A stretch of 41,013 nucleotides of DNA from Bdellovibrionaceae bacterium UBA5009 (lineage in GTDB: Bacteria; Bdellovibrionota; Bdellovibrionia; Bdellovibrionales; Bdellovibrionaceae), in contig DGYJ01000078.1 in NCBI GenBank assembly GCA_002396665.1, forward strand, positions 1-41,013, in the 5' to 3' direction. Positions 9,194 to 40,459 of this stretch are shown here, piece by piece. Every line of letters begins with the position of its first letter. The first letter of the stretch is position 1. The notes beneath the pieces are model-generated. The model worked only from the letters and a program-made list of their open reading frames with translations, did not search any database and was not told the origin of the DNA. Position numbers and translations under genes: made by a program.

Positions 9194-10882
9194 ATGTTAC
9201 TGGAATTGAAAGTTTCAAATTTTGCGATCATTGATAATCTTCATATTCGCTTTCGCTCTGGATTGAATATCCTGAGTGGTGAAACAGGTTCGGGCAAATC
9301 TGTTCTTTTAAAAAGCTTGGCTCTATTGATGGGTGGCAAGGCCTCTTCAGACATGATCCGCCCTGGGCAAAATCAATCTATTGTTGAAGGTTGCTTTGAT
9401 ATTTCGAAACGAAAAGACATCCAAGATAAATTGCACGAGCACGGAATCGACACTGACGACGATCAACTGATCATCCGTCGCCTGATCAGTTCTGAAGACA
9501 AATCCAGAATTTATCTGAATGGGACCCTTTCACCTTTGTCGACACTAAGGGATTTAGTGGCCCCCTTGATCGAAGTCACAGGCCCCGCTTCGCCGTTGAT
9601 TGAAATGACTGGCCAACATGAAAATAAAAACTTGATGTCTAAATTTTATCATTTGGATCTTTTAGATCATTACTGCGGAACTTGGGAAAAGCGCCATCAG
9701 TTTGAAACCCAATACAATCGCTTGAAACAAATTGATTCTGAAATTCACGATCTGCAAAGCGATGGCCAGAACAAAGCCCAACGCCTTGATTTTTTACTTT
9801 TTCAAAAAGATGAAATCGAAAAATTAGATCTTGGACCAGGCGAAGACTTGGCCATTGAATCAGAAATTAAAAAATTAAAAAATGCGTCCCGGCTGAGTTC
9901 TTTTGTAAGCATGGCCGAAGCTACATTGTATGAAGACGATGACTCTGCAAAAAATCGTCTCAAAGCCGTTTTAAAAAAATCTGCTGAATTGGTCACCTTA
10001 GACCCCACATTGGCTGATAAAATTCAAGGCCTTGAACAAGCTCAAACATTGATAGATGACGCTCTTTATTCTTTGCGTGGCGAATTGAATGATATCGAAT
10101 CTGACCCCAATCGCTTAGAAGAATTGGAATCTCGATTAAGTGCCCTTCGCAAGTTGCAAAAAAAATATGGCACTGATGTGAATAGTATCCTACAGGCCTT
10201 GGTTGAAATCGAAAATGAAGTCGCAATTTTACAAAATTCTGAACAACGTGTGATCGAACTACAAAAAGAACAAGAAAAAATCAAAGCCGATCTTAAAAAA
10301 TTAGGAAACGATCTTCACACTCGTCGCAGCAAGGGATCAGAGCTTCTAACCGCCTCGGTGAATGAAGAACTTAGCGAACTGAACATGAAGGGTGTCTTAT
10401 TTAGCGTGCATTTGGAAAAGTCTGAAGATTTTAAAGCCACAGGCCTGAGTGATGTCGAGTTTATGACTCGCTCTTCGGCGAAGGATACCCCGCGCCCACT
10501 CTCTAAATTTGCATCGGGCGGCGAGCTCAGTCGTATTTTGTTATCATTAAAACGAGTGGTGGGATCTTCTGATCAGCCGCGCACTTACCTTTTTGATGAA
10601 GTGGACACCGGAGTCTCTGGCGAAACCGCTGAAAAAGTTGGTAAAAAATTAAAGAGCATCGCCAAAGGTCAGCAAGTCATTTGCGTGACTCATTTGCCCC
10701 AGGTGGCCGCTTGTGGAGATCATCATTTCTATATTCAAAAATCTCCGCAAAAAGATTCTGTCTCGATGGACGTTGCAGAACTGAAATCCAAAGACCGTGT
10801 GCGCGAAATTGCCCGCCTGATTTCAGGCGAAAAAATCTCAAAAACCAGCCTGGCCCACGCCGAAGAGTTGTTGGGGCTGTAG
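9194..10882 (+). CDS. recN: DNA repair protein RecN (SMC-like ATPase)
   Basis: 562-aa ORF with a GGAGG RBS. N-terminal Walker A GETGSGKS, a long coiled-coil middle, the ABC signature ASGGELSRILL, and Walker B YLFDEVDTG. The nadK-recN pairing is a common synteny. Confidence 0.95.
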   Translation: MLLELKVSNFAIIDNLHIRFRSGLNILSGETGSGKSVLLKSLALLMGGKASSDMIRPGQNQSIVEGCFDISKRKDIQDKLHEHGIDTDDDQLIIRRLISSEDKSRIYLNGTLSPLSTLRDLVAPLIEVTGPASPLIEMTGQHENKNLMSKFYHLDLLDHYCGTWEKRHQFETQYNRLKQIDSEIHDLQSDGQNKAQRLDFLLFQKDEIEKLDLGPGEDLAIESEIKKLKNASRLSSFVSMAEATLYEDDDSAKNRLKAVLKKSAELVTLDPTLADKIQGLEQAQTLIDDALYSLRGELNDIESDPNRLEELESRLSALRKLQKKYGTDVNSILQALVEIENEVAILQNSEQRVIELQKEQEKIKADLKKLGNDLHTRRSKGSELLTASVNEELSELNMKGVLFSVHLEKSEDFKATGLSDVEFMTRSSAKDTPRPLSKFASGGELSRILLSLKRVVGSSDQPRTYLFDEVDTGVSGETAEKVGKKLKSIAKGQQVICVTHLPQVAACGDHHFYIQKSPQKDSVSMDVAELKSKDRVREIARLISGEKISKTSLAHAEELLGL

Positions 10883-10900
10883 TTGTTATCAAGAATTGCG

Positions 10901-11100
10901 GCGCGGTAGTTGCTAGCCGAATGTTCGGCTAGCATTAATATCAGCAGAATTTTAAGCAGAAGTCGCTATCTCGTGGATTGTTGAGCGACAGTTGCTATCC
11001 GATGCCTATGGATTACTCAGGCTGTCGTTAATATCAGAGAGCTGTTACGTGGAAACCCCTAGCCGATGGATAGTTCGGACTGTCGTTAATATATCAGCGA
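10901..11100. repeat. degenerate direct repeats (about 55-60 bp units) ending in TTAATAT(AT)CAG
   Basis: TTAATATCAG occurs at 10935 and 11028, and TTAATATATCAG at 11086. The exact 13-mer CTGTCGTTAATAT occurs at 11022 and 11080 (58 bp apart). AGTTGCTAGCC is at 10908, AGTTGCTATCC at 10990 and AGTCGCTATC at 10961. TAGCCGA-N-TTCGG hairpin-like cores lie at 10914 and 11060. Confidence 0.6.
10912..10933 (+). terminator. perfect 9-bp hairpin 30 nt downstream of the recN stop
   Basis: GCTAGCCGA-atgt-TCGGCTAGC. It is followed by ATTAATATCAG, which is A/T-rich but not a clean U-tract. The hairpin is also the first member of the degenerate repeat family listed next. Confidence 0.35.
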
Positions 11101-11113
11101 GTTGTTGCGCAGC

Positions 11114-11160
11114 AGTCACGGTTCGCGCGGTAGTCGCGCTCGAGCTATAGTCACGGTTCG
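11114..11160. repeat. exact 12-mer AGTCACGGTTCG repeated at 35-bp spacing
   Basis: Copies at 11114-11125 and 11149-11160, with the related AGTCGCGCT at 11132. Confidence 0.7.
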
Positions 11161-11324
11161 AGATGCAGTTAGAATCCGAAGTGTTATTAGGCAGTAATTG
11201 CAATTGGATCTTGTATTCCCTTAACGAAAACTGCGCGGTCTTGGAACTTAAAATCTGATGGACCTGTAAAGTTCCTATTTTTAAAAGTTTTTATTTTTTT
11301 CGGTTCATCAAATGTTCAGGGCAG

Positions 11325-11357
11325 AATTTAATATTTAATATTTAATATTTAATATTT
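11325..11357. repeat. heptanucleotide microsatellite (AATATTT)x4 plus a partial unit
   Basis: Perfect units at 11330, 11337, 11344 and 11351, preceded by the partial unit AATTT. Confidence 0.95.
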
Positions 11358-11389
11358 GAGGTTGAGGTTGAGGTTGAGGTTGAGGTTGA
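11358..11389. repeat. hexanucleotide microsatellite (GAGGTT)x5 plus GA
   Basis: Perfect units at 11358, 11364, 11370, 11376 and 11382. It directly abuts the heptamer array and ends 8 nt from the stop codon (11397-11399) of the minus-strand HUH gene. On the minus strand it reads (AACCTC)5. Confidence 0.95.
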
Positions 11390-11396
11390 AACATAC

Positions 11397-12074
11397 CTAG
11401 CCGGAGCCCTCAAACCAATTCATTTCACCAACTATTATTTTAGCCACAGATCGAGGATAGCCCATTCCTTCGAATTGATTAAGTCTGATATAATCTTTCA
11501 ATCTAAGTACAGCTTGATGCCCAATCACAATGCGCGTAAATGGACGGCGATCCCAGAATTTATGCGGGTGCATTCCGGAGGTTCCGCTATTAGCCGAAGC
11601 CTTGCTTATGACCGAGGCTCCACCATTAGGCGTAGCCCTACTTACGATCGAGGCTCCACCGTTGACCGAAGTTGATGAAGAAGGATCCATTACCGAGGCC
11701 TTCATTTTCTGCACTGACCACTTGTTCCGGCCACTGACTTTCATCGCAATCGCGGCTGTTATTGCGCGAATAAAGGGTTTGTAATTGTCTCTGCGCGAAA
11801 GTTTGATTTGCAAGTGCAAATGATTTCCCACATTGGCAGAACTGACAAGTTGGATATTATTTTTATGAGCAAACTTTTTGAGTAGGGCTTGGATTTCTTT
11901 TTTGTAGCGAAGAAAAGACATTTTACCTTTGGCCTTTGTAGACCTTAAAGTCAAATGCATGGTTTGTTTGGTTGAAAGCGGCCGTGCATAGGCCCTGCCC
12001 TTTCTTTTAGTCTGCAAATCGCCACCGTAGGAGAGACTTTCTTTTTTGAAAAGATTGATTTGCTTGGCGGCCAT
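11397..12074 (-). CDS. HUH/Y1 single-strand DNA transposase-family protein (RAYT / IS200-like, COG1943-type) with an internal repeat insertion
   Basis: 225-aa ORF. The HUH motif NHLHLQIK has H-L-H encoded at 11814-11822. The candidate catalytic Tyr lies in DYIRLNQ (Y195, codon 11490-11492), resembling the RAYT YIxxNP motif. N-terminal GGDL..KRKGRAYARPLSTKQTMHLTLRS and FWDRRPFTRIV are typical of this family as I recall it. RBS is GAGGGTG. Confidence 0.6.
   Translation of the reverse strand: MAAKQINLFKKESLSYGGDLQTKRKGRAYARPLSTKQTMHLTLRSTKAKGKMSFLRYKKEIQALLKKFAHKNNIQLVSSANVGNHLHLQIKLSRRDNYKPFIRAITAAIAMKVSGRNKWSVQKMKASVMDPSSSTSVNGGASIVSRATPNGGASVISKASANSGTSGMHPHKFWDRRPFTRIVIGHQAVLRLKDYIRLNQFEGMGYPRSVAKIIVGEMNWFEGSG
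11576..11684. repeat. about three copies of a 36-bp in-frame tandem repeat inside the HUH gene
   Basis: CGAGGCTCCACC occurs at 11613 and 11649 (36 bp apart), with a degenerate copy CGGAGGTTCCGC at 11576. On the minus strand these encode NGGASIVSRATP / NGGASVISKASA / NSGTSGMHPHKF. Confidence 0.7.
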
Positions 12075-12348
12075 TTTATTACACCCTCATCTAGCATTTT
12101 ACAACATACTTATCTAAATTCGATAGTGAAGCATTTTTATAAATATGTGAACGAAGGTATAAAATCAAGATAAAATTAAATTTTTTTTTAAATTTACATA
12201 ATCAGAAGTTCAGAAGAGAAAATCCTATATCTGCTAACGCACTTGTGGCCCTGCCGTTGAATTTCTTTCGTTTGAACTTCTTACTATTCTAGACCAGCAC
12301 TGATTGACCCATAAATGGAGCTCTCCGCTCATAGCTCTGTGCTTATAA

Positions 12349-12362
12349 GCACATATTTTTAG
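12349..12362. repeat. perfect 14-bp palindrome GTGCTTATAAGCAC
   Basis: Read directly from the sequence. It shares the GCTTAT core with the 17-bp array at 12761-12898 and lies about 275 bp upstream of the HUH gene start. Confidence 0.9.
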
Positions 12363-12434
12363 ACCTTGTTCTTATAATCATACATTTATTGGTTTGCACT
12401 TATACGCCGACATAGTCTGCTCTACGTTTGAATC

Positions 12435-12592
12435 GAAATTCGTAGCCATTGAAGCAAGCTTGCTACCACTGAAGAAATTCGTAGCCATTGAAGCAAGCTT
12501 GCTGCCACTGAAGAAATTTGTGGCCTTTGAAGTAAGCTTAGAGCCAATGAAATAAATATACCGCCATTGAAATAAATTTACTGTCGCCACGA
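12435..12592. repeat. 39-bp tandem repeat array (3 full units plus 2 decayed half units), each full unit carrying a palindrome
   Basis: Units at 12435-12473, 12474-12512 (1 mismatch) and 12513-12551 (diverged), followed by ATAAATATACCGCCATTGAA and ATAAATTTACTGTCGCCAC. The 12-bp palindrome AGCAAGCTTGCT is at 12453-12464 and 12492-12503. Confidence 0.9.
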
Positions 12593-12760
12593 TACTTCAA
12601 ACTCTATAAATTGCAGAAGACAATCCAGCACTGGCATATTCTTTGATTCAATTCCCAATACCCTTGCCCAGAGCCCTTCTTGGGCACTGGGTTTGTAAAT
12701 TATCCGTGTCAAAAATGTGCACACTATGATTTCGCCATAAACTGGTTTATGTATTTGGTG

Positions 12761-12898
12761 GCTGCAGTTGCAGTAAAGCTTATGTAGCCACTGTGCTTAT
12801 GCAACAACAATGCTTATGTGTAGCCACAGGGCTCTTGCAACAAAAAAGCTTATGCAATGACGGAGCTCGTGCAACAACAGGGCTTTTGCCAGCTGAGT
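12761..12898. repeat. 17-bp periodic degenerate tandem array (8 units) upstream of the small secreted protein gene
   Basis: GCT-core units start at 12761, 12778, 12795, 12812, 12831, 12848, 12865 and 12882. The period is 17 bp, with one 19-bp unit. Unit tails alternate between TAGCCAC and CAACAAC. A further degenerate copy, GCTTGTG, is at 12947. Confidence 0.8.
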
Positions 12899-13014
12899 AT
12901 TCGCAGTTGCTGGGCACTCGAAGCAGCTGGTATTATCAGCTGCAAAGCTTGTGCAGAGTTTTTTTGAGTAATTTTTTGCTACAGACTTTTATTTTCACAG
13001 TACGGGGGTACAAA

Positions 13015-13344
13015 ATGAAAATCATCCTACAACTGGCCATGCTCCAATTTCTTGGAATGTTTTTGGTCTACACAGTATCGCAAGCAGCACCTGCAAAACT
13101 CATCGCCCAGGCCATAACAAGCGATGCTGTCGCAACAGTCGAGTCCCAATTCCCAAAAAACGTATCCGTTAGCTTAAAAAAAATTGAAGAGGTCGCAGTT
13201 TACCGCTGCATGAATTGCTATGATTTAAAACTAACTTATGCTGGCCGCTCTTTAGAATCTGGAAAAGCCATTAAGTTTTCGAAATTGATCGCTGTCCGTG
13301 GCGGTCAAAGTGATCAACTCTCGGTCAGTGTTATTAAGCCCTAG
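13015..13344 (+). CDS. small secreted protein, unknown function
   Basis: ATG at 13015 is preceded by GGGGGT. Signal peptide MKIILQLAMLQFLGMFLVYTVSQAAP; 109 aa. The upstream 74 codons of the track ORF run through the 17-bp array, whose period is not a multiple of 3, and are rejected. Confidence 0.6.
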   Translation: MKIILQLAMLQFLGMFLVYTVSQAAPAKLIAQAITSDAVATVESQFPKNVSVSLKKIEEVAVYRCMNCYDLKLTYAGRSLESGKAIKFSKLIAVRGGQSDQLSVSVIKP

Positions 13345-40311: not shown

Positions 40312-40385
40312 ATTTAAGTCGCAGCAACGAATAATGAATTTGTAATTTAGAATTCGCCTAAACATTTTTTTCGTTTTGGAATTTG

Positions 40386-40425
40386 TTTGTAAGAATGTAT
40401 TTGTAAGAATTTGTTTCGTAAGAAT
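40386..40425 (+). promoter_or_regulatory. three direct repeats TTTGTAAGAAT / TTTGTAAGAAT / TTTCGTAAGAAT upstream of hpt
   Basis: Copies at 40386-40396, 40400-40410 and 40414-40425 (period 14 bp), ending 35 nt before the hpt ATG. The function is unknown; it could be an operator or promoter element. Confidence 0.45.
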
Positions 40426-40459
40426 TTGCGCCATTGAGTGCAATAAATAAGGAGTACAC

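Follow-up and report, generated by a model that had tools for sequence, protein, structure and literature searches.

A divergent Y1 HUH gene set in repeat-rich non-coding DNA and its family in the Bdellovibrionota

Why does a single transposase-like gene stand between two long, repeat-filled, non-coding stretches in a contig whose other genes are closely spaced? The question is raised by contig DGYJ01000078.1 of Bdellovibrionaceae bacterium UBA5009, a stretch of 41,013 nt (the window), in which a 678-nt minus-strand gene (11397-12074) specifies an HUH-type protein of 225 aa. It lies between recN (9194-10882, plus strand) and a gene for a small secreted protein (13015-13344, with its ATG at 13015), and its flanks hold 514 nt of non-coding DNA on the recN side and 940 nt on the secreted-protein side. 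True gaps elsewhere in the window reach about 283 nt at most; two bigger apparent gaps are occupied, one by a NUDIX gene and one by a 166-aa open reading frame (ORF). An initial annotation, made from the letters of the window, had called attention to these unusually long flanks, which we confirm. Its description of several repeat families in the flanks also stands; the 7-mer, the 6-mer, the 39-mer with its palindrome, the 17-mer and the units spaced by 58 nt were all recovered. Tandem repeats (TRs) were called with Tandem Repeats Finder and degenerate spaced units were taken from a separate repeat search; six of the seven window TRs scoring at least 60 fall in the 2.1-kb island around the HUH gene.

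The association of gene and repeats is real and extends throughout the gene family, and it consists of local direct repeats, not dispersed REP doublets. Repeat statistics were computed for 79 genome loci and, as a replicate set, for 63 independent metagenome loci (~140 in total), and the contrast between local arrays and dispersed doublets that had been drawn from the one locus holds in both sets. At the 79 genome loci the median gap is 245 nt beside the HUH gene and 28 nt for other gaps (p 1e-23), and TRs make up 6.6% of the non-coding bases beside the gene, compared to 1.4% in other gaps. In a length-matched control with gaps of at least 200 nt, the TR share is 7.2% beside the gene versus 0.6% elsewhere, and a TR is present in 30 of 84 such gaps beside the gene versus 2 of 32 elsewhere (p 0.001). 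Direct 8-mer repeats exceed expectation 5.7-fold beside the gene and 2.1-fold in the control gaps (p 0.008); inverted repeats in the family flanks show no enrichment over controls. Shuffling the 400 nt on each side of the gene reduces the TR share from 5.6% to 0.05-0.17%. The share declines with distance, from 5.6-8.9% within 400 nt to 3.2% at 400-800 nt, 1.8% at 0.8-1.6 kb and 0.8% at 1.6-3.2 kb. The metagenome replicate gave 5.1% beside the gene and 0.85% in other gaps, so that in the two locus sets the TR share of non-coding DNA beside these genes is 5-11 times that of other gaps. Relatives of the window gene do therefore stand beside repeats, a point on which the initial annotation had staked its proposal.

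The repeat units themselves are specific to each locus, ranging from perfect 5-7-mers of 9-13 copies up to an 18-mer of 21 copies, and the several families found together at each locus are unrelated to one another. Many of the arrays are situated 3' of the stop codon, arrays are found upstream of promoters at several loci, and some lie within coding sequence.

Two orthologous loci show how such repeats change with time. The closer one, L001, has a synonymous divergence (dS) of 0.03 from the window in the HUH gene and a recN protein that is 99.8% identical; six indels, of repeat units or otherwise small, distinguish it from the window. L001 is without one copy of the 35-nt-spaced unit (11114-11169), has one copy fewer of the 7-mer microsatellite and one unit fewer in the 39-mer array, and carries 3.4 copies of the in-gene 36-mer (for a protein of 237 aa) compared to 2.6 copies in the window (225 aa); the remaining indels are one 15-nt repeat unit and 4 nt in a T run. 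Repeat copy numbers thus vary between related strains.

The second orthologous locus, L004, has the same gene order as the window. The recN proteins are 96.8% identical (dS 1.04), the small secreted proteins are 99% identical (dS 0.85), and the HUH proteins are 76% identical with a saturated dS of about 1.9. The nonsynonymous divergence (dN) is 0.19 for the HUH gene (dN/dS about 0.1), 0.02 for recN and 0.01 for the small protein. The HUH gene is accordingly a long-resident ortholog under purifying selection, the protein of which changes ~8 times faster than those of its neighbours. Hypermutation of the HUH gene, or its replacement by a paralog, was considered for the difference between 76% and the 97% of recN, and was rejected because the synonymous divergence of the neighbours, 0.8-1.0, is of the same order. 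The neighbouring genes align with L004 at 86-88% nucleotide identity (86% for recN), whereas the flanks are unalignable apart from the promoter motif and a conserved block at 12630-12760, which is expected at a dS of about 1. Window and L004 have the locus in common and carry different arrays, with unit identities of 94-100%, so that the arrays must be much younger than the split. The 36-nt array of the window (12775-12888) is missing in L004, and a 15-nt x2.8 array of L004 (1901-1942, minus-strand view) takes in the last recN codons and the stop codon and was therefore made in place. Repeats arise in place repeatedly in both lineages.

Matches to the Pfam family Y1_Tnp (PF01797), invariant His, His, Tyr and Asn residues and fold matches identify the protein as a divergent member of the Y1 HUH enzymes. 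With 21.6 bits (E 2.4e-4), the window protein itself falls marginally below the family threshold of 23, because its domain is split by a loop; relatives with a short loop pass the threshold at 29.5-34.4 bits over profile positions 3-119 of 121, in an alignment that covers both catalytic motifs, and all 25 aligned relatives match the family (best E 1e-8). The Pfam assignment suggested by the initial annotation thus fails narrowly for the window protein and succeeds for its short-loop relatives, and the identification as an HUH/Y1 enzyme is upheld by the residues, the family match and a fold shared with IS200/IS605 transposases and TnpA_REP. There is also a weak match to the NCBIfam REP tyrosine transposase model. 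In the 25-sequence alignment, H85 and H87 (the metal-binding HUH motif, NHLH, on strand beta-3) and Y195 and N199 (Y-I-x-x-N, with the catalytic Tyr on the C-terminal helix) are invariant, and so are a W/FWD motif and a family-specific N-terminal arm, YGG..RKGR..RPL. With its catalytic residues intact, the family is predicted to be one of Y1 HUH single-strand DNA endonuclease/ligases. Relatives at about 45% identity number in the hundreds.

An AlphaFold model of the window protein has a core with a predicted local distance difference test (pLDDT) score of 80-96 (66 for the whole model), a disordered loop at residues 133-169, and Tyr195 within a predicted helix at 187-203. The fold is that of a ferredoxin-like Y1 transposase: in a Foldseek comparison with the PDB, the 30 best matches are all ISDra2, ISHp608 or IS200 transposases or TnpA_REP 4er8 (E 3e-4 to 6e-3, target template modelling [TM] score 0.5-0.63); for 4er8 the TM score is 0.45 and the root-mean-square deviation is 3.5. 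Sequence-level PDB matches place the HUH motif opposite DHVH in the ISDra2 transposase and align the W motif with it too. The loop between W119 and F173 varies across the family from a few residues up to ~70, and by alignment columns it is located between helix C and strand 4 (residues 120-172). In the REP-associated tyrosine transposases (RAYTs), the region neighbouring this loop contacts the REP hairpin (PMC6006769). A PADLOC search gave no match to a known defence protein.

When 1.84 billion cluster representatives were searched with a profile, 1628 proteins were found at E<=1e-3, of which 241 reach E<=1e-30, a yield that marks the clade as small and set apart from mainstream IS200 transposases and RAYTs. 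Genomes were scanned at one per GTDB species, and the figures given here come from the best 80 loci. Seventy-eight of these are labelled Bdellovibrionota, two have uninformative titles and none bears the name of another phylum; the taxa include Bdellovibrionales, Pseudobdellovibrionaceae, Bacteriovoracaceae and Oligoflexia. Within the scanned genomes, the clade is confined to the Bdellovibrionota. No relative of it is encoded in 2.9 million viral contigs, and a phage-borne gene was rejected on this ground. Proteins of the family have 175-240 aa, and among the best 80 loci there are 5-7 loci per metagenome-assembled genome, with pairs on single contigs. Paralogs within a genome are 66-90% identical in nucleotide sequence, and their similarity begins 15-70 nt upstream of the ATG and ends at the stop codon, so that they share neither left nor right ends. 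With dN/dS of 0.04-0.10, the paralogs are old and under purifying selection. No conserved neighbour gene, tnpB or other partner was found across the family loci.

One short piece upstream of the gene, the 15-mer TATACCTTCGTTCAC, was singled out by BLAST of flanks against related loci. In the window it lies at 12161-12147 on the minus strand, inside the spacer of the putative HUH promoter. With up to two mismatches allowed, 63 of its 68 occurrences in 490 kb are just upstream of a family gene and on the same strand. A degenerate form is found upstream of the gene at 66 of 80 genome loci and at 48 of 62 independent metagenome loci, and outside that position it occurs 8 times in the first set and 3 times in the second; over the loci L001-L164 it is nearly exclusive to the promoters of this family. 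Two layouts can be distinguished. At ~25 loci a TTGACA-like box is placed 15-17 nt upstream of TATACC and the 15-mer ends exactly at the ATG, which suggests the -10 box plus discriminator of a leaderless mRNA. At the other loci, including the window, TTGAYT abuts the 15-mer, a TAnnnT box comes after it, and the 15-mer fills the 17-nt spacer. Its retention in two promoter layouts and across paralogs that are 40% identical suggests that the 15-mer is a candidate binding site, and more than a promoter element. A few arrays, at loci L011 and L027, take in the 15-mer.

In some genomes, as with RAYTs, the genes have hairpin elements beside them, which is not a trait of the whole family. In the KLAP141 assembly, a ~100-nt palindrome with the ends CCTTGTAAAAA...TTTTTACAAGG occurs within 350 nt of five of the seven paralogs, on either side and in either orientation, and was not seen in the remainder of these five loci. 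Its single-stranded DNA (ssDNA) fold has an energy of -31 kcal/mol (z -7.3), and it looks like a REPIN-like companion or one resembling a MITE (a miniature transposable element with inverted repeats). In another assembly, three paralogs have an upstream element with a GC-rich, perfect 11-bp-stem hairpin, TCTTCACGCCG-CGGA-CGGCGTGAAGA. In the window, the hairpin closest to recN is the first of three degenerate units composed of a hairpin plus TTAATATCAG; the fold of 10895-11040 has z -3.4, and the hairpin may double as the recN terminator. Neither this hairpin nor the palindromes of the 5' flank (12339-12352 and 12453-12464/12492-12503) have a second copy in the 41 kb. The coordinates of these and other features are collected in Table 1.

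Table 1. Features of the HUH locus in the window and hairpin elements at family loci of other assemblies
Feature	Position	Strand	Remarks
3' flank of the HUH gene, recN stop to HUH stop, repeat-rich	10883-11396		
Degenerate direct repeats, 58- and 82-nt spacing (families D5, D6, D7)	10895-11117		
Perfect 10-bp-stem hairpin GCTAGCCGAA-TG-TTCGGCTAGC	10912-10933		Self-match 10911-10934
Direct repeat pair, 35-nt spacing	11114-11169		
Perfect microsatellite (ATTTAAT)x4.6	11326-11357		Tandem Repeats Finder; abuts the next
Perfect microsatellite (TTGAGG)x5.7	11356-11389		Tandem Repeats Finder; abuts the previous
Y1 HUH protein, 225 aa	11397-12074	-	H85-L-H87, Tyr195, Asn199
In-gene 36-nt x2.6 tandem repeat, giving 12-aa repeats in the disordered loop	11578-11671	-	
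5' flank of the HUH gene: ribosome-binding site GAGGGTG (12088-12082), promoter, repeat-rich DNA	12075-12629		
Putative sigma-70 promoter: TTGATT 12168-12163, 17-nt spacer, TATTTA 12145-12140	12140-12168	-	Pattern only
14-nt perfect palindrome GTGCTTATAAGCAC	12339-12352		
39-mer x2.7 array	12435-12539		Tandem Repeats Finder
20-mer x2 repeat, after the 39-nt array	12543-12581		Tandem Repeats Finder
Conserved non-coding block, 83% identical to L004, ~51 identical bases (TTTGTAAATTATCCGTGTCAAAAATGTGCACACTATGATTTC)	12630-12760	+	L004 437-561
36-mer x2.3, alternatively 17-mer x2.5	12775-12854		Tandem Repeats Finder
~100-nt palindrome, KLAP141	L015 3586-3689; L049 2785-2886; L029 2764-2857; L022 2645-2785 and 3613-3701; L016 2758-2845		
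11-bp-stem hairpin element, another assembly	L075 2850-2954; L078 2885-3000; L082 2770-2874		

On the recN side of the gene, the opening unit of the degenerate direct repeats is similar to the last recN codons and stop codon, and the microsatellite block begins 8 nt past the HUH stop codon. No recognisable coding remnant is present in this 3' flank. For both flanks, decayed coding sequence, a possibility raised in the initial annotation, was ruled out: the eight flank ORFs lack a credible Pfam match. On the other side, the three units of the 39-nt array have 100, 97 and 77% identity to unit one, and the first two carry the 12-nt palindrome AGCAAGCTTGCT. A degenerate 36-nt (17+19) array of about three units, spanning 12775-12888, has been inserted after the conserved block and ahead of the secreted-protein gene's ribosome-binding site. 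The short motifs said to be common to both flanks occur at chance level, AGTTGCT being found 8 times in the window compared to 5.7 expected, and two of its three island copies fall within one degenerate unit.

The conserved block is probably regulatory DNA or a leader of the downstream gene, outside the HUH unit, and is likely to be a promoter, leader or small RNA; its start, CTGGCAT/C-N5-TTTGAT, may resemble a sigma-54 -24/-12 element. Given the conservation of the block with the relative and the presence of the downstream gene's ribosome-binding site, the right-hand ~385 nt (12630-13014) probably belong to that gene rather than to the HUH gene. The island as initially drawn was accordingly correct in its repeats and probably too long at its right end, and the in-gene 36-nt repeat is to be added to it. 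A terminator-like hairpin, CTGCAAAGCTTGTGCAG, followed by a T run, lies at 12940-12966 on the plus strand, ~50 nt before the ribosome-binding site of the secreted-protein gene, and could be an attenuator or a small-RNA end; at the corresponding position in L004 there is another hairpin, GGCAAC-TCT-GTTGCC. An Rfam search of the whole window found no family at gathering score, with the block at 12630-12760 unmatched and a chance microRNA match (E 0.3) as the sole result in the island; a tRNA search of the window found none. An exact-match metagenome scan for the block returned nothing, missing even L001's own sample. The sole strong TR of the window outside the island is a 14-nt x3.5 array (GAATTTGTTTGTAA) at 40379-40428, in the 148-nt gap before the last ORF. 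Plus-strand GC skew is negative across the window (1-41013; -0.08 overall) and long gene runs are mostly on the minus strand, so that the minus strand is probably the leading strand and the HUH gene probably runs with replication.

How might gene and repeats be connected? The best explanation, in our judgement evenly balanced between belief and doubt, is that a distinct Y1 HUH clade acts in cis near its own gene and so maintains the repeat-rich flanks. A preference for cis action is common among transposases, and the substrate of HUH enzymes is ssDNA, often at a site beside their own promoter. The enzyme would favour DNA in the vicinity of its own gene, where it would nick and rejoin ssDNA or form a tight or covalent complex, and its site could be the promoter 15-mer, in the region that RNA polymerase melts. 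Nicks or stalled forks would lead to slippage and template switching, and the tandem duplications generated continually in this way would maintain the long repeat-rich flanks as a kind of repeat nursery. The 15-mer would then also serve as an autoregulatory operator. An origin of the repeats from the enzyme is our inference. In its strong form, the proposal is of a cis-acting nickase/ligase that recognizes the 15-mer as ssDNA in the open complex or at the replication fork and seeds tandem duplications over a few hundred bases; we consider this version unlikely.

Several observations weigh against an active role for the enzyme. No sequence signature links it to repeat formation. The TR units share no k-mer, the best 4-mer being present in 10 of 67 units (z 3.8, uncorrected), and no conserved motif was found 3' of the HUH genes. 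Only about a third of the flanking gaps have a detectable TR, and the island repeat units have no second copy elsewhere within the 41-kb window. The comparison gaps may be more constrained, in which case the enrichment could mean a lack of constraint, and the loci of one genome are not fully independent. The 15-mer, finally, could merely bind a host regulator.

The main rival to cis action by the enzyme is passive accumulation, in which an immobilised Y1 remnant sits in unconstrained flanks that collect repeats by ordinary replication slippage, with the enzyme uninvolved; the enrichment would then reflect that intergenic DNA elsewhere in these compact genomes is functional and under selection against repeats. 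The flanks do change at a roughly neutral rate, being unalignable at a dS of about 1 beside neighbours of 86-88% nucleotide identity, and this rival would also explain TR units without a common motif, the presence of TRs, more rarely, in other gaps and their detection in only about 36% of long flanking gaps. However, bacterial genomes are expected to show a deletion bias, and for that reason the persistence of long flanks, both at an orthologous site over a dS of about 1 and at ~140 loci, counts against it. Unconstrained DNA would also have to be reconciled with length-matched long gaps elsewhere that hold 11 times less TR, with perfect microsatellites of 9-21 copies beside several paralogs, with TRs that arise inside coding sequence, and with a TR density that declines gradually as far as 800 nt and more from the gene. 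We regard passive accumulation as possible, at a decidedly lower level of belief than we grant to cis action by the enzyme.

An active IS200-like insertion sequence, with repeats and hairpins as its ends or as the debris of repeated insertion and excision at one site, would fit the multiple copies per genome, the Y1 transposase fold, the ~100-nt palindrome near five of seven KLAP141 paralogs and the 11-bp-stem hairpin upstream of three paralogs elsewhere. It is nevertheless highly improbable, because the paralogs are old (66-90% identical, not near-identical), share no ends and, at the orthologous locus, keep their position over a dS of about 1. Also at odds with it are the lack of a conserved downstream motif and of tnpB, the Y---N motif in place of the IS200 Y---Q (PMC6006769), the zero count of relatives in 2.9 million viral contigs, and flanks without inverted-repeat enrichment. 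The arrays might instead be functional, as iteron-like sites for the HUH protein or a regulator, or as contingency repeats that set the expression level of the HUH gene or of its neighbours. HUH Rep proteins are generally known to bind direct repeats near their own genes, the 39-mer units carry a palindrome, arrays are located upstream of promoters at several loci, and the window and L004 each have an array just upstream of the neighbour's conserved block. Still, the repeat units are unrelated within and between loci, with several families at each locus, no motif shared among the units and no conservation even between orthologous loci, and many arrays lie downstream of the stop codon; this makes functional arrays very unlikely.

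Cis action by the enzyme, if it does occur, bears on the host role of domesticated Y1 transposases such as RAYTs and on the origin of their repeats. The clade offers convenient handles for such questions: an invariant catalytic core, one 15-base cis motif at nearly every copy, and a measurable local output in the form of young TRs that thin out with distance from the gene. If true, it would be the first bacterial nuclease to drive the birth of minisatellites near its own gene, and a dedicated, enzyme-driven local minisatellite generator would constitute a new functional class of domesticated transposase, with a bearing on the genome plasticity of predatory bacteria and possible use as a tool for local sequence diversification. 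If the enzyme is not responsible, the loci represent an unusual reservoir of persistent unconstrained DNA in compact genomes.

Among known systems, the HUH Rep proteins of rolling-circle plasmids and ssDNA viruses bind short direct repeats by the nick site and their own gene, and a cognate site overlapping the promoter of such an initiator would permit autoregulation. The iterons of rolling-circle plasmids and CRESS-DNA viruses are similar to the present loci in that an HUH gene adjoins short direct repeats and hairpins, which is a resemblance only. Each Rep has one conserved iteron family and belongs to an episomal replicon, whereas the clade has several unrelated, fast-changing repeat families beside solitary chromosomal genes, and its proteins have the Y1 transposase fold.

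The closest comparisons are with the TnpA-Y1 proteins, which Quentin et al. (2018) divide into 12 subclasses, with Bdellovibrio unmentioned (PMC6006769). The IS200/IS605 TnpA proteins (subclass 1.1) are like the clade in fold, in the HUH-plus-Tyr chemistry predicted for it, in Y1_Tnp membership and in being multi-copy. They differ in having Y---Q where the clade has Y---N (PMC6006769), a length of about 150 aa compared to 175-240 aa, and copies that are about 99% identical, in contrast to the old paralogs of the clade, which also lacks conserved subterminal hairpin ends and tnpB. Subclass 2.3, from Chromatiales and Alteromonadales, has several diverged copies per genome, no flanking REPs and insertions in its core (PMC6006769), and in these points it resembles the clade, as it does in being of the class-2 Y1 type. 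Its proteins, however, are ~325 aa long, with NHYH and YVDLNP motifs, conserved inserted domains and a long C-terminal tail, and come from other taxa; they have not been described in association with tandem repeats or a promoter motif.

The RAYTs (class 2) carry the signature Y---NP and also W[EQ] (PMC6006769). The clade resembles them in its HuH motif, NH[LIV]H, in the Asn at Tyr+4 and in a Y1 HUH fold for which the TnpA_REP structure 4er8 is among the best matches. Like RAYTs, the clade does not behave as an insertion sequence, having low copy-to-copy identity within a genome and a stable chromosomal position, and its genes are set in repeat-rich non-coding DNA with adjoining hairpin elements in some genomes. 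Unlike RAYTs, it has Q, E, H, R or A after Y-x-x-x-N and never a conserved Pro, FWD in place of W[EQ] (PMC6006769), 5-7 or more copies per genome rather than about 1-2, an N-terminal YGG/RKGR/RPL arm, a hypervariable loop and the 15-mer in the promoter, and its associated DNA consists of local, locus-unique direct and tandem repeats rather than a dispersed palindromic REP family. The RAYT-like character proposed in the initial annotation is thus borne out by the class-2-like motifs and is contradicted by the missing Pro of Y---NP and by the multiple copies; no REPtron arrangement was seen in the 41-kb window. In the searchable literature, neither the clade nor its 15-mer nor the link with repeats was found described. 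Compared by published description, the 12 TnpA-Y1 subclasses include none with the combination of features seen here, which points to an undescribed branch of domesticated transposases related to the RAYTs.

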